From positions 29,579-93,578 of the forward strand of contig JAJEFG010000107.1 of the NCBI GenBank assembly GCA_022820545.1: a DNA stretch of 64,000 bases, read 5' to 3'. The notes under the pieces are model-generated. The model was not told the DNA's origin. It was given only the letters and a program-made list of their open reading frames with translations, and searched no databases. Numbering within the stretch: position 1 is the first letter of the stretch; every line of letters starts with the position of its first letter. This document shows, in pieces, positions 1,020 to 11,797 of this stretch. The DNA comes from Acidobacteriota bacterium. GTDB taxonomy: Bacteria > Acidobacteriota > Vicinamibacteria > Marinacidobacterales > Marinacidobacteraceae. The position numbers and the translations under genes are program-made.

Positions 1020-1879
1020 TCGGGGATCAGGGACGGAGGCATCCCGGTGCGCTTGCTGCCCGCGTCCTTCCAGGCGTCGTAGCGGAGCCGGAGGGTGATG
1101 ACGGGGTTGGCGTTCTCGTGGGGCTGGATGTCCTCGTCGCTGACGGCGAGGTATGCGTAGTAGTCGCCGTCGTTGTGCGACTGGCCCAGCGCGTCGTCCC
1201 GGTTCGCGATGGCGATGTAGGCGACGTGGGAGGTCTTGCCGTCGCAGGGGGCGGCGGGCTTCGGTTCCTCCTCGCAGGTGCAGCGCTTGTCGCCGCCGGC
1301 GCGGTCCGCGCCTTCCATGGCGGCCATCACCCGGTCGGCCAGGGTGCCCTTCGCCCTCATGAAGGCCAGCACGGCATCCTCCGCCACGTCGTCGTCGAAG
1401 AGGATGTTCCCCTGGACCTGGACGAAGATGTCGTCTCCGACCTGGCCCGCCACGTAGAGCGATGCCGCGCTGTTGCGGCTCCCGTTGAAGCCGGCGCTCC
1501 GGCCCTGGAGGTCCAGGATGCCGAACTGGCGCCGTTCCATCTGGGGTTCGTCCTTGAGGTTCTCCTGCTCCCGAAGGAGTTCGATGATCCGCTCGGGGTC
1601 GGTTCCCTTCCGGATCTCCTCATAGACGAGCGTCTGGTTCGCGCGGGTGTTGTCCACGCCGGCCTGGCAGGCGGCGACTCCCACGCCGGGGACGATGACG
1701 GCCTGGATGTCCATCAGGTCCCGGGCCGGCCGGGGCGGAAACCGCGACTGGCGAACGCAGGTGGCCGAGGCGACGATCACCTGGCCGGAGTTGCGGTCCA
1801 CCGCGATCACCGACCAGGTGGCGAGTGCGGCTGTCGGCGCGAGCAACGCCGCCAGGGCGAGAAGTGCGATGCGTCTCAT
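1016..1879 (-). CDS. DUF1028-family (Ntn-hydrolase-like) secreted protein
   Basis: Within ORF 1016..2005(-), the internal start MRRIALLALAALLAPTAALA is a signal peptide followed by TWSVIAVDRNSGQVIVASATC, a DUF1028-like N-terminus. The 5' extension of the ORF is antisense junk. The stop overlaps the downstream ATG. Confidence 0.6.
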   Translation of the reverse strand: MRRIALLALAALLAPTAALATWSVIAVDRNSGQVIVASATCVRQSRFPPRPARDLMDIQAVIVPGVGVAACQAGVDNTRANQTLVYEEIRKGTDPERIIELLREQENLKDEPQMERRQFGILDLQGRSAGFNGSRNSAASLYVAGQVGDDIFVQVQGNILFDDDVAEDAVLAFMRAKGTLADRVMAAMEGADRAGGDKRCTCEEEPKPAAPCDGKTSHVAYIAIANRDDALGQSHNDGDYYAYLAVSDEDIQPHENANPVITLRLRYDAWKDAGSKRTGMPPSLIPE

Positions 1880-2155
1880 GGGCGCCTCCCGGTGAGAGGC
1901 TATCGTGTCCGGTCGGACAGAGGTCACCGGCGCGATCCGAACCGGCCGCTTCGGGGACGGGACCGTGGGACATGGCGCGCCGCCAACCGGCGGTTGGGGG
2001 GGCAAGGGGGATCAGTGGCCTTCCCCTTGCTTGCCCTCTTCCCGGACGGTGGAGTTTTCCGGGGCATGCGCGGGCGCACGGTGGCTTCGCAGCCATCCTG
2101 CGCCGAGGCGATCCTTGCCGAGACTCCGCGGAGCCTTCGTTGGAGGTGTTCGGTG

Positions 2156-4777
2156 ATGAGCAGGTTCTCGAGCTGCCATTTGGTCTGTCTGCTGGGCGCC
2201 TCAGTCCTGGCCGGGGGTTGCGGTCAGGATTCGGTGGCGCCGTCGTCCACGTTCCCGCGTCGCGCACTTCCGGGAGATCCGGTACGGGATTGGCTCGACG
2301 CCAACGGCAAGCCGTTCGAGGGTCCCCACCTCTCGCTTCCCCACCAGGAACTGGAGTTCATGAGGGAACTGGTGGGCGACGCACGCATCGTCTCCCTGGG
2401 TGAGAACACCCACGGGGCTCGCGACTTCTTCGAGATGAAGGCCCGCGTGCTGCGCTTCCTGGTGGAGGAGATGGGGTTCAACACCTTCGGCATCGAAGCC
2501 ACCTGGCCGGAGGCTCGGCTTCTGGACCGGTACGTTCGGACCGGCGAGGGTGACGCAAGGGAGCTGCTCCAGGGTCTCTTCTTCTGGACCTGGCGGACCG
2601 AGTCGGTGCTCGAGATGATCGAGTGGATGCGCGCCCACAACGAGGCGGGCGGCGACGTCGGGTTTCACGGCTTCGACATGCAGTTCCCCGGCCTCGCGCT
2701 CGAGAACGTGCGCGCCTATTTCCGCGAGGTGGATCCCGATCGGGTCGGGATCGTCAACGAACACATCCAGTGCCTCGACGCCTTCGCGAACGACGAAAGG
2801 GGACGGTTCCCGACTCGGCGTTACGCCAGCCAGCCCCTCGCCTATCAACGAGACTGCGCTGCTTCACTGCAGGAGGTCCGCAACCTGCTGTTCGTGAGGC
2901 GGGCGCAGTACGAGGCCGCTTCGGGCACGGACGCGTTCGAGGTCGCCCTCCAGAGCTTGCGCGTCGCCGTTCAATACCACCTCGATGAGACAGGCGAACA
3001 GGATCGCGACGAATCCATGGCGGAAAACGTCGGCTGGATCAGCGACCGGATCGGGCCGGACGGGCGAATGGTCCTCTGGGCCCACAACTACCACGTCTCC
3101 ACGCAGGAGGGGGCCCAGGGTCATTTCATGCGGCAGCGCTTCGGGGACGACATGGTGGTGGTCGGTTTCAGCCACGCCCGCGGCCACTTCACCGCGGTTA
3201 CCCGGACTGGGTCGCAGTACCGGGGACTGGCCGAGCACGAACTCGACGAGCCCGTCGAGGGCTCCTTCGAGAGCTATCTGGAGAGGGCCTCCGCGCCCCG
3301 GTTCGTGCTCGATCTCCGGGACCTGGGCACGATCTCGGCGGGAAACTCATGGCTCACGGAGACGCGGCCGTTCCGCGGCATCGGCGCCGTCTACGACCCC
3401 GACGCACCCGGTGACTATTGGCATGAGGCCCCGCTCCGGGAGTGGTACGACGTGATCATCCACTTCGAGTCCACGCGCGCGACCGCGGTGCTGCCGACGG
3501 TGACGCCGAGACCCGAACCAGTTCCCGACCCGACGGCCGCCGAGGAGTGGATCGAAACCAGTGCCGTGCCGTTCCACGGCACTCACTTCTCCCTCCCGCA
3601 CCGCGATCTTGCCGGCGTCGGGGAGGTGGTTGGCGAGGCCCGCATCGTCGCCCTCGGCGAGAACACCTACGGCACCCGCGACTTCCACCAGATGAAGGCC
3701 CGCCTCTTTCGCTATCTCGTGGAAGAGAAGGGTTTCGACACGTTCGCGCTGGAGGGCGCCTGGCCGGAGACCCGCCTCCTGAACCGCTACCTGCAAACCG
3801 GCGAGGGAGACCCCCACAGGCTGCTGTCCGGAATGCACTTCTGGGTGTGGAGATCCGAGTCCATGCTCGAACTCATCAAGTGGATGCGGGCCTACAACGA
3901 AGACGGAGGCCACCTGGAATTCCATGGATTCGACATGCAGTACCCGGGACTGGCGCTCAGGAACGTCCGCGAGTACCTGCGTTCGGTGGATCCCGAACGC
4001 GCGGCGTCGGTGGAGGCCGATCTCAACTGTCTCGAGACCTTTGCCAACGACCACACCGGACGGTTCCCCAGTTCACGATACGCCGATCAGACCGAGATCT
4101 ACCGGTCCGCCTGCGGGGATTCGCTCGAGGCGGTGCGGGAAGACCTGGTCGCGAACCGGAACGCATACGAAGCGGCATCCGATGAGGATGCCTTCGCGGT
4201 AGCGCTCCAAAGCCTGCGGGTGGCGGTTCAGTACCACCTGATGTTTGCCCGCGAGCAGTCGCGCTCGGAGTCCATGGCCGAGAACATCGCCTGGATCAAC
4301 GGGCGCGTCGGGCCGGGCGGTGGGCTGGTCCTTTGGGCCCACAACTCCCATTTCGCGCGAAATCCCGCCGCCACGGGGTTTCACCTGCACGAGATGTTCG
4401 GGGACGATCTGCTCAGCGTCGCCTTCGGCCACGAAAGCGGGCAGTTCACGGCTGTCACTCGCCGGGGATCGGAGTACGTCGGCCAAATGGTGAACGAGTT
4501 GAGCCCTCCAATTCCCCACTCGTTCGAGTACTACCTGGCGGGCGCCTCCGCGTCCCGTCTGGTACTCGACCTGCGCACCTGGGACGCGAGTTCGCCGGGC
4601 AGTGCCTGGCTCGGCGACCTCCGTCCGTTCCGCAACATCGGTTGCTGCTACGACCCTGACACCCCGGAGAGTTACTGGCGCTCGATTCCCTTGGCACGTT
4701 GGTACGACGTGCTCATCTTCTTCAAGACGACCCGGCCTGCCGTGGTGCTTCCCGCACTCACCCCGGATCCCTGGTAA
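2156..4777 (+). CDS. Lipoprotein with two tandem erythromycin-esterase-family (Ere/PF05139-like) domains
   Basis: This is the in-frame internal start of ORF 1118..4777. MSRFSSCHLVCLLGASVLAGGCGQDS has a lipobox (LAGGC). There are two ~400-aa repeats, each carrying an LGENTHGxxxF(F/H) motif, MKAR..R(F/Y)LVEE.GF.TF, WAHN.H and VAFGHxxG. The 5' 1 kb of the ORF is antisense to the DUF1028 gene. Confidence 0.7.
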   Translation: MSRFSSCHLVCLLGASVLAGGCGQDSVAPSSTFPRRALPGDPVRDWLDANGKPFEGPHLSLPHQELEFMRELVGDARIVSLGENTHGARDFFEMKARVLRFLVEEMGFNTFGIEATWPEARLLDRYVRTGEGDARELLQGLFFWTWRTESVLEMIEWMRAHNEAGGDVGFHGFDMQFPGLALENVRAYFREVDPDRVGIVNEHIQCLDAFANDERGRFPTRRYASQPLAYQRDCAASLQEVRNLLFVRRAQYEAASGTDAFEVALQSLRVAVQYHLDETGEQDRDESMAENVGWISDRIGPDGRMVLWAHNYHVSTQEGAQGHFMRQRFGDDMVVVGFSHARGHFTAVTRTGSQYRGLAEHELDEPVEGSFESYLERASAPRFVLDLRDLGTISAGNSWLTETRPFRGIGAVYDPDAPGDYWHEAPLREWYDVIIHFESTRATAVLPTVTPRPEPVPDPTAAEEWIETSAVPFHGTHFSLPHRDLAGVGEVVGEARIVALGENTYGTRDFHQMKARLFRYLVEEKGFDTFALEGAWPETRLLNRYLQTGEGDPHRLLSGMHFWVWRSESMLELIKWMRAYNEDGGHLEFHGFDMQYPGLALRNVREYLRSVDPERAASVEADLNCLETFANDHTGRFPSSRYADQTEIYRSACGDSLEAVREDLVANRNAYEAASDEDAFAVALQSLRVAVQYHLMFAREQSRSESMAENIAWINGRVGPGGGLVLWAHNSHFARNPAATGFHLHEMFGDDLLSVAFGHESGQFTAVTRRGSEYVGQMVNELSPPIPHSFEYYLAGASASRLVLDLRTWDASSPGSAWLGDLRPFRNIGCCYDPDTPESYWRSIPLARWYDVLIFFKTTRPAVVLPALTPDPW

Positions 4778-5056
4778 GGCTTGCGGGTGGGACCGCAGCA
4801 CGGCCCACGCGTCGTTCCCGCTTGAACTGCCGGCCTAGCGGGCGTGCGGCCCGGGGCTCCGGCGCGCGATAGTCGAACCGGGCGATTCCACGGTGGCGAG
4901 GTAAAGGCCGCCCGGGACCAGGACCGCCGTCAGGGCGGCGAGAAGGAGGGCGAGGATCGTCATGGGGACATCATGGCGGCCGAGTGCGCCAAAAGGTGTC
5001 CCCCGGCCGCCACGCCGGTCCCTGGGTCGCGAGTTGGAACCGGCCGGCGGCTCGTT

Positions 5057-6262
5057 CTAGAGCAGTTCCCGTTCGGCGACCACGTCCATGTCGCCGCCGA
5101 AGAGCCGGCGCGGCGTCACCTCGACGGGTTTCGGCAGCCTGTCCTCGGCGGTCTCCTCCGGCCGGCCGCCCAGCTCGCGCAGTTTCCGCAGGTGCGGCGT
5201 GAGACGCGACTCGGCTGAGCCCGCGGCGGCGTTGTAAACCGCGTTCGTCTTGGTGAGCTGACTCCCCACGTCGGCGAAGCGAGCGAGAAAGATCTCGAGA
5301 CGCTTTTCGAGCTCGAGACCGGCCTTTTTCATTTCCTCGGCGTTCCGGGTGCTTGTCTCGCTCCGCCACATCGCCACGACGCTCCAGAGAAGTCCCATCA
5401 GAGTGTGGGGGGTGGCGAGGACCACGTTGCGTTTCGCCGCGTAAGGGAGGAGGTCCGGTTCGTGTCGGATAGCTTCCGAAAGGAGCGATTCGAAGGGTAG
5501 GAACATCACCGTGAACGGCGGGCCGTCGCCGAGCTTGGTCGGATAGCTCCTACGGGAAAGCTCCTCCGTGTGCGCCTTGACCCGCTTCGCGTGCTTCGCG
5601 AGCGCCGCGTCCTGGAGCTCGGGTGATTCCACCTCGGTGGCCGTCAGGTAGTCGTCCATCGGAACCTTGGAGTCCACGGGCAGGCGCGTCCCGCCCGGCA
5701 ACTGGAGTTCCAGGTCGGGCCGTGCGCCATTTGTTCCCTTTTGGGTCCTGAAGTCGGCGTGGCTCGTGAGCCCCACCGACTCGATCAGGTTCTGGAGCTG
5801 GATCTCGCCCCATTTGCCGCGGGCTTGCTTGTCCCCCTTCAGTGCCTCACGCAGCGAGCGACTGCTGTCCTGAACATCTTCCACCTGGCTGGCGAGGCGC
5901 TCCGCTACCTTTTGAAGGGCGCCGCGGTCTTCAGCGCGTTTCCGCTCCAGCTCGCGTGCGAGACCCTCGACCTTGGCGAGCGATTCGCGCAGCGGTCCCG
6001 CGGTCTCGGCGAACTTCGCCTGCCCGATTTCCCGATCCGAGCGGGCTGCGGCCTGCAGGCGCTCGACGGCCTGCCCGGTGGCGTGTTCGTAGGCCTCCCG
6101 GGCCTGCTGGTTGCTCTCGGCGGCCGCGGCGCGTGCGATGTCCTTGAGATCCGACTGGGTCTGCTGGCGCCCGCTCCGCTCCCCGGCGCGCAGGCCGGCG
6201 ACGTAGGCGGCGACGCCCAGGGCCAGGGCGCACAGGGCGAAGAGGAGGGTGGAAGTGATCAT
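5057..6262 (-). CDS. rmuC: DNA recombination protein RmuC
   Basis: ORF 5057..6664(-) trimmed to the internal Met MITSTLLFALCALALGVAAYVAG (N-terminal TM helix). A coiled-coil region follows, then a RmuC-domain C-terminus (PVDSKVPMDDY, VMFLPFESL, VVLATPHTLMGLL). GGAGA lies 9 nt upstream of the ATG. Confidence 0.8.
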   Translation of the reverse strand: MITSTLLFALCALALGVAAYVAGLRAGERSGRQQTQSDLKDIARAAAAESNQQAREAYEHATGQAVERLQAAARSDREIGQAKFAETAGPLRESLAKVEGLARELERKRAEDRGALQKVAERLASQVEDVQDSSRSLREALKGDKQARGKWGEIQLQNLIESVGLTSHADFRTQKGTNGARPDLELQLPGGTRLPVDSKVPMDDYLTATEVESPELQDAALAKHAKRVKAHTEELSRRSYPTKLGDGPPFTVMFLPFESLLSEAIRHEPDLLPYAAKRNVVLATPHTLMGLLWSVVAMWRSETSTRNAEEMKKAGLELEKRLEIFLARFADVGSQLTKTNAVYNAAAGSAESRLTPHLRKLRELGGRPEETAEDRLPKPVEVTPRRLFGGDMDVVAERELL

Positions 6263-6750: not shown

Positions 6751-7695
6751 TCAGATTGCGGCCAGGCGAGCCGTCGGGCCGTGAAGGACCTCGACGTAGG
6801 CGCCGGCCGGCACCTCGGCGGAGACGACGGCCAGCGAGAGGCCGGCGGGACCGCCCCAGCCCTCCGGGCGGCGCACGGCGCTCGTGACCCGGCCGGCGGG
6901 AGCAGCCTGAAACAGGACGACCGAATCCGCCGCCGGCGCGAATTCCTCGTCGAACTCCAGCCGGCGCAGGACACGGGGAATCCGGCCCCGATGCGCCTGC
7001 CGCGCCACGTACTCCTGGCCGATGTAGCACCCCCTGCCGAGGCGGACGTGCGCGGCCAGCCCGCTCTGGAGGGGCAGGGCCCGTTCGTCGAGTTCGGCGC
7101 CCCACCGCGGCTCGCCGGCAAGGATCCGGAGGTACTCCTGTTCTTCGGGCGACGCTTCCACGGACTCCCCGCCGTCCTCGATCAGGTCCCGGAAGGACAT
7201 GCGGCCGCCGGTCCGGAGTCCGATGTGGACCATCGTCTTCGCCGTCCAGGGCCGGAAATCCCGGCGGACGAACCCGACTCCGGTTTCCACCACCCAACCC
7301 GGCGAACCCGGATCCGGCCGGCCGGGACTGGGACCGGCGTCCGTGCAGACGATCTCGAAGTCGCCGCGCTCCGCGAGCGCGATCTCCACGTCGTCCGCGA
7401 TCCGGTACCGGTCCAGCGCCGCCGCGAGCGCCTGCTCGCGGGTCCGCTCGCATTCGAGGAGCACCGCCCCGTTCGTGACCGTCGCGACCGCCGGGGCGAT
7501 GAGGTTGCCTCGCGGGCCGAGGAGGGCGGTCCGCGCGGCGCCGGGAGCCCCCGGCAGCTCGCCGGACATGATGCGCGTGAGGAACCCGATCCGGTCGTTC
7601 CCGGTGACGACCACGATCCCCCGGCTGCCCGTTTGCACCGAAAAGCGGGGATCGCCGCCCGGAAACTGCGGGACTTGGGGTGTGGAATCCTCCAT
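6751..7695 (-). CDS. YgfZ/GcvT-like folate-binding protein
   Basis: This is the C-terminal 314 aa of the 1444-aa ORF 6751..11085(-), starting MEDSTPQVPQFPGG. GAGGA lies 9 nt upstream. The remainder of the ORF is antisense to the + strand genes. Confidence 0.6.
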   Translation of the reverse strand: MEDSTPQVPQFPGGDPRFSVQTGSRGIVVVTGNDRIGFLTRIMSGELPGAPGAARTALLGPRGNLIAPAVATVTNGAVLLECERTREQALAAALDRYRIADDVEIALAERGDFEIVCTDAGPSPGRPDPGSPGWVVETGVGFVRRDFRPWTAKTMVHIGLRTGGRMSFRDLIEDGGESVEASPEEQEYLRILAGEPRWGAELDERALPLQSGLAAHVRLGRGCYIGQEYVARQAHRGRIPRVLRRLEFDEEFAPAADSVVLFQAAPAGRVTSAVRRPEGWGGPAGLSLAVVSAEVPAGAYVEVLHGPTARLAAI

Positions 7696-7764
7696 GGATG
7701 GGTCCTCGCGCTTTATCCTAATCGGGGGTGGGCGTTCGCTCCGGCCCGGAGGCCCCCGCCACTC

Positions 7765-8901
7765 ATGGATCTCCCACTCTCGATCGTCGCCGAATCCTTC
7801 AATCCGCCGGCGCCCCGCCGGCTCGATTTCGACAGCGTGGGGTCCCCCCGCACCCTGCGGCCGCGGCCGGTGGGGGCCGGCGCGTCGGCCGAAGCCGATC
7901 TGCGGGCGGACCTGGCCTGGTTCTGGAATTCGAACGCGGACTGGGCGGACGATCAGATCGCGGTCGGTGAGAACTACCCGGAGCTGGTGCGGCGGCTGGC
8001 CGGTTCGCTCGGACTTCGGGAAGGCGACCGCGTCGTGCTCTGCGGCTCGGAGCCGGACGGGCGGCGCGCCGCCTGGCGGGCGGCCCTCCCGGACGGGGTC
8101 GAGGTATCCGACTGGCGCCCGCGCCGGCTGGGGAGGGTGCTGCTCCGCGACCTCGAGGCGCTGCTCCACGAGCGGACCCGCCTCGTGCTGCTGACCAAGG
8201 CCTGTCCGGTGACCGGCTCGCTGAACGAGATCATCCCGGTCGCGCGGCTTCTGGAGGGGACGGATGCGGTGCTCGTCACCGACGCGAGCCACTTCGTCGC
8301 CCACGGTTCGCTCGACATCCGGAACCTCCGCTGCGACGCCGTCATCGCGGACGTGGCCGAATTCTTCGGCGCCCGCGGGGCGGCGCTCTGGGCCCGCCGG
8401 CTGGATAGCGAGGCCTCGGCGAACGGGGCCGTCTCGCCCAACGTCCTCGCGGGGCTCGCCCGGGCGGTTTCCTATGCCGAGCGGCTCGGCGAGGCGCCGG
8501 CCGCCCCGGTGGCGCCGCCCTCCGAGCGCTTCGGACGCCGGGAACCGATGCGGAAGGGGATGCAGGGCATCCGCCAGGAGGAACGGATCCTCTCCCGCTG
8601 GATGCTCCGCGGACTCGCGCGCATCGAGGGCGTCTCGGTCCTCGGGGAGGACGATCCCCGCCGGGCCGCGTACCGGATTCCGACGTTCACCTTCACCTGC
8701 GAGGGAGGGAGCGCGCCGGCGCTCGGCGCCGCGCTCGAGGCGGAGGGGGTGCAGGTCGCCGCCGGGGACCTGGGGTCCTCGACCACGCTGGAGAGCCTCG
8801 GCCACGATCCGGAAGCCGGCGTGCTGCGGGCGTCGCTCGGGCACTACCACACCCGGGACGACGTCGAGCGTTTCCTGCGCGTGCTGCAGTCGCTGCTCTA
8901 G
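7765..8901 (+). CDS. Aminotransferase class V / cysteine desulfurase-like PLP enzyme
   Basis: This is the C-terminal 378 aa of ORF 6523..8901(+), starting MDLPLSIVAESF. The fold is class V-like (VTDASHFVAHGSLDIRNLRCDAV, HYHTRDDVERFL). It is divergent from the ygfZ-like gene. Confidence 0.65.
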   Translation: MDLPLSIVAESFNPPAPRRLDFDSVGSPRTLRPRPVGAGASAEADLRADLAWFWNSNADWADDQIAVGENYPELVRRLAGSLGLREGDRVVLCGSEPDGRRAAWRAALPDGVEVSDWRPRRLGRVLLRDLEALLHERTRLVLLTKACPVTGSLNEIIPVARLLEGTDAVLVTDASHFVAHGSLDIRNLRCDAVIADVAEFFGARGAALWARRLDSEASANGAVSPNVLAGLARAVSYAERLGEAPAAPVAPPSERFGRREPMRKGMQGIRQEERILSRWMLRGLARIEGVSVLGEDDPRRAAYRIPTFTFTCEGGSAPALGAALEAEGVQVAAGDLGSSTTLESLGHDPEAGVLRASLGHYHTRDDVERFLRVLQSLL

Positions 8902-8967
8902 TTCGGAACGGGCTCTCCTGCGCGCCGCCGCCGGGGCGCGTACGATGGTGGGTCCCGGAGGCAAGCC

Positions 8968-10644
8968 ATGACTGTCCGTTCCGCGTCCATCCCCGTTCCG
9001 CTGCGTCTGCTGCCGTTGTTGCTGGCCGGATTCCTCGCGGCCTGCGGGTCCGAACCGCCCCCGCCGGTCCCCGCCGAACCCGGCGCCCACGCGGACCTCG
9101 TCGCGCTCTTCGAGGAGTGGCGCGAGTTCGAGATGCCCGAGTTCCGAGACGGCGTTCCGGACTACAGCGCCGCGGCGATGGCGCGCCAACAGGCCGAGCT
9201 TCCGGCCTGGCGCGCGCGGCTGGACGGGCTGGCGCCCGAGACCTGGCCGGTTTCCGAGCAGATCGACTGGCACCTGCTGCGCGCCGAGATGAACGGGCTC
9301 GACTTCGACCACCGGGTGCGGCGGCCGTGGGCCCGCGATCCGGGTTTCTACGTGCAGGTCTTCACCGCCCAGAGCGACGTGCCGGCCCACGAAGGGCCGG
9401 TGCTCCACGGGTTCATCGACCTCTGGACCTACGACTACCCCCTCTCCGACGCGGACGCGGCCGAGCTGGCGGCGCGGATCGGAACGGTCCCCGCACTGCT
9501 GGCGCAGGCGAAGGAGAACCTCGCGGCTTCCAACGCCCGGGACCTCTGGCTCGGCGGGTTTCGCTACTTCCGGAACCAGGCCGCCGACCTCGCCGCGTTC
9601 GGCGAGCGGATCGCGGGAACGAGCGCCGATCTGGACGCCGCGGTGGAGGCGGCCCACGCCGCCACCGTGGACTTCCGGGAGTTCCTCGAGGCCGAAGCCG
9701 ACTCGAAGACCGGTCCCTCGGGACTCGGGGCCGACAACTACACCTGGGCGATGCAGCACGTGCACCTGCTGCCGTGGTCGTGGGAGCAGATCCTGACCAT
9801 CATGGAGCGGGAACTGGCCCGCTCCCACTCCTCGATGCGCCTCGAGGAGAACCGGAACCGGGCGCTCCCCGAACTCGAACGGATCGCCTCGGCCGAGGAG
9901 TACGACCGGCGCCTCAACGAGTCCGTGGACCGCTACCTGGAGTTTCTCGTCCGCGAGGAGGTCCAGAGCATCGAGGACTTCATGGATCCGGCGCTCCGGG
10001 CGGTGAACGGGACCTTCCAGCCGCTGGAGAACCCGGACGATCTGCGGAACTTCTTCAGCGAGGTGAACTACCGCGACCCGGACGCCTTCCGCCCGCACAT
10101 GCACCACTGGATCGAGCTGGCGGCCATGCGGGACGCGCCCCACCTGAGCCCCATCCGCGCCGTTCCGTCGCTGTTCAACATCTACGCGTTCCGCTCGGAG
10201 GGCCTCGCCACCGGCGTCGAGGAGATGTTCATGCACCTCGGCCTCCTCGAAGGTTCGCCGCGGTCGCGGGAGCTGACCTGGATCATGCTGGCCCAACGCG
10301 CCGCCCGCGCCATCAGCGGACTCCACCTTCACGGCGGCGGCTTCGACATGGAGGAGGCGGTCGCCTACGCGATGAAGTGGACGCCGCGCGGCTGGCTGAC
10401 CGAGGGCGCCCTGGTACGCGGCGAACAGAGTCTCTACCTGCGTCAGCCCGGCTACGGGACCAGCTACATCATGGGGAAGATCCAGATCGAGCAGCTCCTC
10501 GCCGAGGTGGCGGTGCTGGAGGGCGACGACTTCAGCGTGAAGGACTTCTTCGACCGCTTCTACGCCGCCGGGGTGATTCCGGTCACCCTGGTGCGCTGGG
10601 AGATGACCGGCGAGAAGGACCCGGTGCTGGACCTCCGGCCGTAG
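8968..10644 (+). CDS. Hypothetical lipoprotein (~558 aa; DUF885-like assignment uncertain)
   Basis: The clean ORF has a signal and lipobox LLAGFLAACGS. GGAGG lies 6 nt upstream. There is no HEXXH motif, so a peptidase-MA assignment is not supported. Confidence 0.7.
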   Translation: MTVRSASIPVPLRLLPLLLAGFLAACGSEPPPPVPAEPGAHADLVALFEEWREFEMPEFRDGVPDYSAAAMARQQAELPAWRARLDGLAPETWPVSEQIDWHLLRAEMNGLDFDHRVRRPWARDPGFYVQVFTAQSDVPAHEGPVLHGFIDLWTYDYPLSDADAAELAARIGTVPALLAQAKENLAASNARDLWLGGFRYFRNQAADLAAFGERIAGTSADLDAAVEAAHAATVDFREFLEAEADSKTGPSGLGADNYTWAMQHVHLLPWSWEQILTIMERELARSHSSMRLEENRNRALPELERIASAEEYDRRLNESVDRYLEFLVREEVQSIEDFMDPALRAVNGTFQPLENPDDLRNFFSEVNYRDPDAFRPHMHHWIELAAMRDAPHLSPIRAVPSLFNIYAFRSEGLATGVEEMFMHLGLLEGSPRSRELTWIMLAQRAARAISGLHLHGGGFDMEEAVAYAMKWTPRGWLTEGALVRGEQSLYLRQPGYGTSYIMGKIQIEQLLAEVAVLEGDDFSVKDFFDRFYAAGVIPVTLVRWEMTGEKDPVLDLRP

Positions 10645-10678
10645 AAGCCCCGGCGCCGGGCTGGCATACTCCGCCGCC

Positions 10679-11797
10679 GTGATTGCAAGACCCATCGCCG
10701 GACTGCTCGGCGCCACTCTGCTGTTGTCGGCTCCCTCCGGGGCCGCCTCGGCCGAACCGTTCCGCCTCGGAACCTTCGAACACCGGGGCGAGGCGTTCCT
10801 CGGGATCGTTCTCCGCGACGCCTGGGCGGTGGACCTCTCCGGAGCGAACGCCTCGCTCGAGCGGCACAACCGGATGTGGGTCAGCCTCCCCATGCCGGAG
10901 GACATGAAGGAACTCGCCGGGCGCTGGCATCTCGGCATGCGCGACCGGGTCCACGCCATCGTGGACCAGGTGGTCCCGCTGCTCGACCGCTCCGCGGACG
11001 AACGTCCGGTGTGGATCCACGAGCTCGAGGGGCTCCACGTCTTCCCGCCGGTACGCCCGGGGATCATCCTGGCCACCGCCCTCAACTACCCGGCGCACGG
11101 GGTGGAGATGACCACCGGCGCGCCGGCGGCCATGTCGGACGCCTCGGCGCTCGACGACCAGCAGGTCTCGATGGACCACTTCTGGGAGCGGGAGCCGGGC
11201 GACCGCCGCCAGAACCCGTACCTCTTCATGAAGCCCGGGAGCATCGCCATCGGCCACGGCGAGCCGATCCTGATGAAGCCCGAGCGGGAGATGGTGGACT
11301 GGGAGTGCGAACTCGCGGTGGTGATCGGCCGGCCCGCGAGCGACGTCGAGGCGGAGGACGCCGGCGCCCACGTCTTCGGCTACACGATGATGAACGACGT
11401 CGGCGACCGGGAGGGCCGGGGGGACGACCGCTACGGGTCGGACTGGCTGGTGTGGAAGTCCACCGAGACCTTTGCCCCGCTCGGCCCCTTCATCACCCCG
11501 GCGGAGTTCGTGGCCGACCCGCACGACCTGGACATCCGTTTCACCCTGTCGGGCGAGATCATGCAGGACGCCAACACCGGCATCATGGAGCACAAGATCC
11601 CCGAACTCATCCAGTTCGCCTCCCACAACCTGATCCTGCGGCCGGGCGACGTGATCGCCACCGGAACCCCGGACGGCGTGGGCTACGCCCGCATCCCGCC
11701 CATCTTCATGAAACCCGGCGACACCGCCGCCTGCTGGGCCGAGGGGATCGGAACGCTCGTGAACCCGGTGCGCGCGTGGGCGGACGCCATTCGCTGA
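10679..11797 (+). CDS. Fumarylacetoacetate hydrolase (FAH) family protein with N-terminal Sec signal peptide
   Basis: GTG start. MIARPIAGLLGATLLLSAPSGAASA is a signal peptide. FAH motifs are present: VIATGTPDGVG, and the C-terminal 220 aa are typical of HpaG/MhpD-like hydratases. Confidence 0.75.
   Translation: MIARPIAGLLGATLLLSAPSGAASAEPFRLGTFEHRGEAFLGIVLRDAWAVDLSGANASLERHNRMWVSLPMPEDMKELAGRWHLGMRDRVHAIVDQVVPLLDRSADERPVWIHELEGLHVFPPVRPGIILATALNYPAHGVEMTTGAPAAMSDASALDDQQVSMDHFWEREPGDRRQNPYLFMKPGSIAIGHGEPILMKPEREMVDWECELAVVIGRPASDVEAEDAGAHVFGYTMMNDVGDREGRGDDRYGSDWLVWKSTETFAPLGPFITPAEFVADPHDLDIRFTLSGEIMQDANTGIMEHKIPELIQFASHNLILRPGDVIATGTPDGVGYARIPPIFMKPGDTAACWAEGIGTLVNPVRAWADAIR

Follow-up and report, generated by a model that had tools for sequence, protein, structure and literature searches.

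The erythromycin esterase (Ere) family is known chiefly for macrolide resistance, and of its members, which number about ten thousand (10,731 representative proteins at E <= 0.001), the majority have no assigned substrate. To our knowledge, the Ere macrolide esterases are single-domain proteins. The best matches, in sequence and in fold, to the protein described here are BcR135 (PDB 3b55/2rad) and BcR136 (2qgm) of Bacillus cereus, deposited as "succinoglycan biosynthesis protein" and reached by the family profile at E = 3e-84 and 4e-82. Both cleave p-nitrophenyl butyrate, and BcR136 shows no macrolide hydrolysis (PMC6109786). They resemble our protein in having the major and minor lobes and the 2His/2Glu residues, with a probable lipobox in 2qgm, but each is a single domain, about 23-25% identical to each half of the tandem protein, with no non-catalytic partner domain. 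Literature searches on Ere with sponge or Acidobacteria, "Marinacidobacterium", Ere pseudoenzymes and PF05139 yielded nothing relevant on tandem or inactive Ere domains.

The tandem protein is encoded in a window of 64,000 nucleotides, the whole stretch analysed, from an Acidobacteriota bacterium (contig JAJEFG010000107.1); some MAG names suggest marine sponge as the source of the samples. The coding sequence lies at 2156..4777 on the + strand, from an ATG at 2156 to a TAA at 4775-4777 (included), and direct reading finds a Shine-Dalgarno-like GGAGGTG at 2143..2149 (+), 6 nt 5' of the ATG. Public assemblies contain the gene, called with the same 873-aa product (P0001, near-identical, 99%). The initial annotation of an 873-aa lipoprotein agrees with the open reading frame, with the lipobox and its Cys22, and with these gene calls. 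There are no other Ere genes in the window, where the domain HMM built here matches one ORF only, and a promoter and terminator scan of 1800-5200 gave no signal exceeding shuffled expectation.

The protein belongs to the PF05139 (erythromycin esterase) family and contains two full domains, as was first proposed. Pfam matches PF05139 to the whole protein in two stretches (E = 2.3e-145; 485 bits, where the gathering cut-off is 26.4), the best of which spans positions 1-358 of the 358 in the profile. The suggested PF05139 HMM check gave no assignment to another family, PF05139 being the sole Pfam family at E <= 0.01. Our domain HMM gives the two P0001 halves scores of 590 and 552 bits, and the halves of the window protein align to each other over 418 residues (E = 9e-170) with 232 identities, or 56% rather than the ~45% originally estimated. 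The Ere fold consists of a major lobe of parallel beta-sheet plus a helical minor lobe (PMC7979712). An AlphaFold model with a mean pLDDT of 87.5 has secondary structure in the same order in both halves, and Foldseek finds the two-lobe fold, with TMt of 0.84-0.86 to 3b55, 2rad and 2qgm and 0.68-0.70 to EreC. At a pTM of 0.58, the model leaves the mutual orientation of the two domains unfixed and so points to no particular cooperative mechanism.

The N-terminus, MSRFSSCHLVCLLGASVLAGGC, fits a lipoprotein signal pattern with lipobox LAGG-Cys22 (signal peptide at 2156..2221, +; Cys codon 2219-2221), and the pattern with its Cys22 is kept in 6/6 orthologs. The pattern, PROSITE-style, is {DERK}(6)-[LIVMFWSTAG](2)-[LIVMFYSTAGCQ]-[AGS]-C plus an Arg or Lys within the first 7 residues; residues 12-22 fit it both in the window protein and in five orthologous genomes, each with Arg or Lys in residues 1-7. 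The residues after Cys22 are G-Q-D, and the paralogs have a common ...G-C-[GQA]-[EQ]-D at the lipobox. We know of no established lipoprotein sorting rules for Acidobacteriota. From the Cys to domain 1 runs a flexible tether, aa 23-40 (2222..2275, +), marked by pLDDT values below 50 at residues 19-38 of the AlphaFold model and by a dN/dS of 0.33 for residues 1-60 (tether included), the highest among four regions. A near-invariant Cys pair in domain 1, C206/C234, is repeated in domain 2 as C625/C653, which together with the conserved lipobox points to an extracytoplasmic location. From these features, the tandem protein is predicted to be lipidated at Cys22 and to reside outside the cytoplasm, either in the periplasm or on the surface. 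The lipid anchor is not peculiar to the tandem protein: lipoboxes are present in nearly all paralogs of the clade, and the chain of 2qgm (BcR136) begins ...LLVTGC.

The two domains differ in their catalytic residues, which were mapped by HMMER alignment to EreC chain 6xcq, with residue roles taken from PMC7979712 and PMC6254334. By alignment and column conservation, domain 1 (aa 41-448; 2276..3499, +) has the full catalytic set: E83, H86, E114, R284 and H313 correspond to EreC E47, H50, E78, R261 and H289, and all are invariant in 6 orthologs. His86 (codon CAC, 2411..2413, +) is the predicted catalytic base, a role taken from that of the equivalent His (PMC7979712). Domain 1 keeps 59/61 family-conserved columns, with block-mean pLDDT of 76-98, mostly above 90. 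Domain 2 (aa 459-873; 3530..4774, +) keeps 50/61, with block-mean pLDDT mostly 80-96, and its set is incomplete: E502, Tyr505 for His, E533, R703, Ser704 for Asp, and H732. Tyr505 (codon TAC, 3668..3670, +) aligns with EreC His50, whose equivalent is His in 94/94 other full domains compared. The residue at 505 is Tyr in 6/6 genome orthologs and Phe in P0004 and P0006 (four Tyr and two Phe among the six domain 2 sequences compared). Similarly, the Asp285 equivalent is Asp in 93/94 other domains and Ser in every domain 2. Further domain 2 changes are E533A in L003/P0003 and H732R in P0006. The motif LGENTHGxRDF, at first described in both halves, is thus found in half 1 only (aa 80-90), half 2 reading LGENTYGTRDF with Tyr505. 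The other motifs quoted with it hold approximately (WPEARLL in half 1 and WPETRLL in half 2; WAHNYH and WAHNSH; VGFSHARG and VAFGHESG). Nor are the catalytic motifs kept in both halves, since domain 2 has neither the base His nor the near-invariant Asp. The alignment leads us to predict that domain 1 is the sole catalytic centre and that domain 2 is inactive.

It might instead be proposed that both domains are active, with Tyr505 or a nearby His serving as base or nucleophile, and that the fusion doubles or diversifies catalysis at the surface. The pocket of domain 2 has not been erased, since E502, R703, H729 and H732 remain, as does E533 in most orthologs; it might still support an altered chemistry, and the domain is under purifying selection (see below). 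Tyr in place of His is also found in a number of single-domain lineages that appear separate from one another (P0018/P0019, P0124, P0141 and P0142), and Tyr is the replacement in 10/14 non-His domains across the family; Tyr could therefore be a functional alternative to the catalytic His rather than a plain loss. Two other tandem Ere proteins, P0015 and P0198, have His in both domains. However, the Phe at 505 in P0004 and P0006 is incapable of acting as base or nucleophile, individual orthologs show Ala for E533 or Arg for H732 with no such variation in domain 1, and the Ser for Asp exchange is found in every domain 2. Mutating the catalytic His of EreB cuts activity about 1000-fold (PMC7979712), and all four 2His/2Glu residues of RRSP are essential (PMC6254334). 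Activity in both domains is, on this evidence, unlikely.

Purifying selection acts on both domains. A comparison of 6 orthologous genomes in which synteny is conserved gives dN/dS values of 0.17 in domain 1 and 0.19 in domain 2, the latter meaning that selection on domain 2 is still purifying. This bears on the idea that the protein is a decaying duplication with a functionless domain 2, or an assembly artefact arising from a frameshift or a false join in metagenome data. Domain 2 does evolve somewhat faster, with ortholog identity of 82-85% versus 88-90% in domain 1, and it has the smaller share of conserved columns. But the uninterrupted ORF, of 872-874 aa, recurs outside the window in 5 species-level MAGs that are independent of one another and in additional metagenome contigs, and the low dN/dS of domain 2 goes with a confidently predicted fold. 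The initial annotation had taken a half lacking all catalytic residues as the sign of a degenerate duplication; domain 2 goes partway there, having lost the His and the Asp, but it is not decaying. Decay or artefact is largely refuted, and we consider it extremely improbable.

The tandem protein is a fusion of two neighbouring Ere-family genes, and the junction (aa 441-466, RATAVLPTVTPRPEPVPDPTAAEEWI; 3476..3553, +) is recognized by comparison with single-domain paralogs. These have C-termini of the form ...TTVLPxRxPD[ST]W followed by the stop, and N-termini of the form ...GCAEDAVTPTLVLPDPPPDPTSAW. The junction consists of the C-terminal tail of an upstream gene, without the final Trp and stop, followed by the Pro-rich post-lipobox tether of a downstream gene; pLDDT falls to 65 at residues 451-460. 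In related Acidobacteriota genomes, single-domain Ere lipoprotein genes stand next to one another in arrays of 2-5, with a stop/start overlap, TGATG, between array genes in L007 and L008. It is these relics of both parent genes, together with the arrays of single genes in relatives, that identify the event as gene fusion. Two adjacent paralogous genes would have been joined in frame, with removal of the first gene's stop codon and the second gene's signal peptide. In a neighbour-joining tree, both halves group with single-domain P0009, domain 2 on a longer branch.

Domain 2 might alternatively descend from a paralog that was already of the Tyr type. The same tree speaks against this, placing P0018/P0019 apart from domain 2. 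Conversely, 5/7 positions fixed differently in domain 2 also deviate in the P0018/P0019 type (hypergeometric p = 0.005), two of the five with the same residue in both.

We think it probable that the protein is a fused periplasmic or surface lipoprotein hydrolase, with a catalytic domain 1, a non-catalytic domain 2 and a substrate other than a macrolide. The product, of about 92-95 kDa, would be exported by Sec, lipidated at Cys22 and attached to the membrane by its short flexible tether. Domain 1, with the water-activating 2His/2Glu + Arg site of the Ere/TIKI superfamily, would be the only catalytic centre, acting on an extracytoplasmic ester, lactone or possibly peptide bond. Domain 2 would most likely be a non-catalytic partner with a role in substrate binding, substrate positioning or protein stability. 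The window neighbours are DUF1028 (divergent), RmuC (convergent) and a class-V aminotransferase, which are on other strands or of unrelated functions, and DUF885; the paralog arrays are flanked by M10-like peptidases, amidohydrolases and CYTH-CHAD. No conserved partner gene was found in the window neighbourhood or in the array flanks, so genomic context gives no clue to substrate or function.

The family name implies a different substrate, that of an extracytoplasmic macrolide (erythromycin-type) esterase. Membership in PF05139 would fit, as would the complete EreC/EreB catalytic set in domain 1: EreA-D have the same fold, and their set E47/H50/E78/R261/H289 is matched there. But EreA-D are far more distant relatives than BcR135 and BcR136, as the TMt values to EreC also indicate, and the NCBIfam scores fall far under their cut-offs (EreB 121.5 bits for a cut-off of 750, EreD 72 for 800, EreA 59.8 for 750). 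A phmmer search with the full protein gives E = 4e-8 to EreC versus 7e-35 to BcR136, the relative without macrolide hydrolysis. Macrolides act on intracellular targets, and we know of no Ere enzyme that is a lipoprotein; both points argue against such a substrate for a lipid-anchored protein. The macrolide hydrolysis suggested by the initial annotation is therefore very improbable, and the tandem gene, judged from these comparisons, is unlikely to be an antibiotic-resistance determinant. Annotating genes of this kind as resistance determinants under the name "erythromycin esterase" is a pitfall for resistome surveys to avoid.

A second function suggested at the outset, a haem or iron role, would make this a haem- or metal-binding lipoprotein like ChaN, with the domain 2 Tyr as ligand and the fused domains mimicking the ChaN dimer, at whose interface Tyr-ligated haem is bound cofacially. 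ChaN has the same major-lobe fold (PMC7979712), Foldseek matches its structure 2g5g at E = 3e-4, and its dimers bind haem (PMC3417520); the preference for Tyr as the substitute for His would also fit. The match to 2g5g is a weak one, however (TMt 0.50, rmsd 14.3 Å), and sequence support is absent: there is no ChaN-family Pfam match at E <= 0.01, and the family profile fails to reach 2g5g at E <= 10. ChaN is without the minor lobe (PMC7979712), which both domains here possess. The Phe of two orthologs speaks against an essential Tyr ligand, and the adjacent genes include none for iron or haem uptake. By this analogy a haem-binding role could be imagined, but we regard it as improbable.

A broader proposal is that His-to-Tyr Ere domains are a distinct, recurrently evolved class of non-hydrolytic ligand-binding modules, obligate partners of catalytic Ere paralogs. 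Such modules might bind metal or porphyrin, by analogy with the Tyr-ligated haem of ChaN, or might trap substrate. If this were true, the fusion would permanently couple enzyme and pseudoenzyme into a heterodimer at the surface of uncultured Acidobacteriota cells. The proposal is speculative, and we hold it to be quite doubtful. In the present data the class would comprise domain 2, the P0018/P0019 type (inside a five-gene array), P0124, P0141 and P0142.

If its domain 2 is indeed inactive, the tandem protein offers a concrete candidate for an enzyme and pseudoenzyme pair, in a family for which no such pair is described. It would also be a clean example of two steps, in which neighbouring paralogs were fused and the catalytic base was lost in one of them, with selection maintained. 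There is a precedent in the superfamily: the PMT C1/C2 domain is a TIKI member without the 2His/2Glu motif, inactive and with its fold kept (PMC6254334). Members of this type differ in being very distant toxin domains or proteins, with no fusion to an active paralog.

The locus also shows that Ere-like proteins, predicted to be secreted and lipid-anchored, have expanded in a lineage-specific manner in uncultured Acidobacteriota. The single-domain paralogs of Vicinamibacteria and "Ca. Marinacidobacterium" (L006-L012; P0007-P0014) show 60-65% identity with domain 1 and 52-55% with domain 2. Those of L006-L012 share with the tandem protein the lipobox, the Pro-rich tether and the C-terminal ...TTVLPxRxPDSW tail, but they are separate genes with their own signal peptides, in head-to-tail arrays of 2-5. 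The catalytic His is found in almost all of them, the exception being the third gene of the L010 array, which has Tyr and is of the P0018/P0019 type.

Known members had been described as single-domain, which holds for characterised proteins but not for the family as a whole, as public data include no fewer than three further tandem Ere proteins, independent of this one: P0015 (1197 aa, Thermoanaerobaculia), P0136 (894 aa) and P0198 (1150 aa). Like the protein described here, each has two full Ere domains per polypeptide, in their case 54-68% identical to each other. They differ in being independent duplications, with identities to the query domains of only about 30-40% in the comparisons made, and in having the catalytic His in both domains, although domain 2 of P0136 has a Glu-to-Gln change at the Glu83 equivalent. 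P0015 has a larger duplicated unit (a ~200-aa N-terminal domain plus the Ere domain) and a hydrophobic, signal-peptide-like stretch at its N-terminus. The tandem Ere architecture is rare and has arisen several times, and the protein described here represents a modest variation in structure within a known, poorly understood family rather than a new class of system.

The gene that runs from an ATG at 2156 to a TAA at 4775-4777 on the forward strand of the window, with GGAGGTG six bases 5' of the start codon, encodes an 873-aa protein, and public-assembly gene calls agree (P0001, 873 aa, 99% identical). Its N-terminus, MSRFSSCHLVCLLGASVLAGGC, matches the lipoprotein signal pattern with Cys22 at the lipidation position, a match kept in five orthologous genomes. 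Pfam gives one family only, PF05139 (E=2.3e-145), in two stretches, and the two halves align with each other over 418 residues (E=9e-170). The initial annotation of a tandem lipoprotein of the erythromycin esterase (Ere) family is therefore borne out, although the halves are 56% identical rather than about 45% as it had estimated.

The two domains differ at the active site. In EreC, E47 positions H50, the catalytic base, while E78 and H289 keep the catalytic water in place and R261 stabilises the transition state (PMC7979712); in RRSP, the related 2His/2Glu motif is indispensable (PMC6254334). Mapping by HMMER alignment to EreC chain 6xcq finds the complete set in domain 1 (E83/H86/E114/R284/H313), whereas the domain 2 equivalents are E502/Tyr505/E533/R703/H732. 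The motif LGENTHGxRDF, thought to occur in both halves, reads LGENTYGTRDF in the second, where the TAC codon at 3668-3670 (+) puts Tyr in place of His. In 94 further complete Ere domains, drawn from the 120 nearest database hits, the equivalents of the catalytic His, E114 and H313 are each present in 94 of 94, and the Asp following the Arg in 93. Within the tandem clade, domain 2 has Tyr at the His position in four of six compared sequences and Phe in two, and Ser at the Asp position in all; E533A is a further loss in one ortholog and H732R in another. Of 61 highly conserved columns, 59 are retained in domain 1 and 50 in domain 2. Catalytic residues are thus complete in half 1, but half 2, whose motifs were also supposed to be intact, lacks both the base His and the Asp.

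A few single-domain Ere members have also replaced the catalytic His: P0018/P0019, P0124, P0141 and P0142 with Tyr, and P0253 and P0227 as well, the substitute across this variant set being mostly Tyr, once Gln and once Arg. The P0018/P0019 type, encoded at L010:6326-7798 by the middle gene of an array of five, additionally carries Glu-to-Asp and His-to-Asp changes at two other catalytic positions. Of the seven family-conserved positions where domain 2 has a fixed substitution, it shares five (p=0.005). Such recurrence of Tyr, and the partly conserved pocket of domain 2, could fit an active Tyr there, or Tyr as a ligand, but we consider this improbable because domain 2 also occurs with Phe, which argues that the Tyr hydroxyl is dispensable. 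Nor is domain 2 decaying, despite its catalytic losses: across six syntenic orthologs dN/dS is 0.19 (0.17 for domain 1), and the predicted structure is confident (mean pLDDT 87.5), with identical order of secondary-structure elements in both domains; pTM, for the inter-domain geometry, is only 0.58. We propose that the protein would be exported and then lipid-anchored, and that in the N-domain His86, supported by Glu83, Glu114, His313 and Arg284, would activate water to hydrolyse an ester or lactone bond, or possibly a peptide bond, of some extracytoplasmic substrate, the C-domain being kept as a putative non-catalytic module for binding or scaffolding.

When one genome per species was scanned, the fused gene was found in uncultured Acidobacteriota MAGs. 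Five species-level genomes, labelled only "Acidobacteria/Acidobacteriota bacterium", carry it at 86-98% identity with conserved synteny. Single-domain relatives occur in Vicinamibacteria and "Ca. Marinacidobacterium", and related genomes, as well as second loci of the same MAGs, contain arrays in which two to five single-domain Ere genes are arranged head to tail: five at L010:2924-10861, three each at L006:7914-12138, L008:7818-11216 and L011:6733-11312, and further arrays at L007:7863-10717 and L012:7821-10714. Summed over the separate loci retrieved, the Ere domains of single related genomes number at least 4-6, a lineage-specific expansion of the family in Acidobacteriota. Nearly every arrayed gene encodes a ...G-C-[GQA]-[EQ]-D lipobox and a Pro-rich tether of its own, so the predicted lipid anchor is not unique to the tandem protein; at L007 and L008, stop and start codons of array genes overlap as TGATG. 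Single-domain proteins end in ...HFESTRxTTVLPxRxPD[ST]W and the tandem protein in ...TTRPAVVLPALTPDPW, while its junction, ...HFESTRATAVLPTVTPRPEPVPDPTAAEEW..., corresponds to a single-domain tail without the final Trp and stop, which runs on into a downstream gene's post-lipobox tether. Both halves cluster with the single-domain P0009 in a neighbour-joining tree, domain 2 on the longer branch. Given these junction relics, the arrays and the tree, the gene is a fusion of two adjacent paralogs, the second of which lost catalytic residues after or along with fusion.

No substrate hint was seen in the genomic context of this locus or in the flanks of the paralog arrays. A DUF1028 protein (1016-2005, -), whose N-terminus has a hydrophobic stretch resembling a signal peptide, MRRIALLALAALLAPTAALA, is divergent from the Ere gene, an arrangement kept in all five orthologous genomes; at L032, a PQQ_2 repeat protein and an M23 peptidase lie upstream of the DUF1028 gene. 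Two long ORFs, of 1219 aa (1118-4777, +) and 1444 aa (6751-11085, -), overlap real genes in other frames and are artefacts of about 70% G+C. The 1444-aa reading has GCYIGQEY, which we take to be a YgfZ/GcvT-like folate-binding signature, near its C-terminal end; Pfam gave no match on segment 6751-8100. Far from the Ere locus, 39083-39145 matches L004:17774-17836, intergenic in that orthologous locus, over 64 bp (91% identity, opposite strand), which could reflect a small dispersed repeat.

When 1.84 billion representative proteins were searched exhaustively with HMMER, 10,731 fell within the family at E<=0.001; of the top 150, none outside the query's own cluster matches at full length. Domain counts on all 261 proteins fetched, however, show that the architecture is not unique: P0015 (1197 aa, Thermoanaerobaculia), P0136 (894 aa) and P0198 (1150 aa) are also tandem. 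Their own two domains are 54-68% mutually identical, about 30-40% identical to the query domains where compared, and all have the catalytic His; these proteins are independent duplications from other lineages. In P0015 the duplicated unit is an N-terminal domain of about 200 aa plus the Ere domain, with a Pro/Ala/Thr-rich linker. With these three further cases, tandem Ere proteins are rare but recurrent, and the combination of one intact and one incomplete active site appears particular to the query clade. Other fusions join Ere to DUF4440/SnoaL-like (P0021, P0077, P0097) or CarboxypepD_reg domains (P0060, P0068, P0098). In P0061, P0073 and P0076 (885-913 aa) a C-terminal Ere domain follows an ECF-type sigma-70 (regions 2 and 4), which suggests that Ere domains can also be sensory or regulatory modules.

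The closest solved structures are BcR136 (2qgm) and BcR135 (2rad/3b55) of B. cereus, by phmmer (E=7e-35 and 8e-32), by Foldseek (TMt 0.84-0.86) and by the family profile (E values of 3e-84 and 4e-82 for the two proteins). The deposited BcR136 sequence, chain 2qgm_A, begins with a lipobox-like ...IAMVSTALLVTGCAEVG (residues 7-20); BcR136 is probably also a lipoprotein, despite its annotation as a "succinoglycan biosynthesis protein." EreC lies clearly further away (E=4e-8; TMt 0.68-0.70), and the query scores 121, 72 and 60 bits against the NCBIfam EreB, EreD and EreA models, below their cut-offs of 750-800. ChaN is a weak fold match (TMt 0.50), with no sequence match by Pfam or the family profile. 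Both BcR135 and BcR136 hydrolyse p-nitrophenyl butyrate, but BcR136 has no such activity on macrolides (PMC6109786). The tandem protein represents a new architectural variant, a predicted enzyme fused to a predicted pseudoenzyme, of this known but poorly characterised family.
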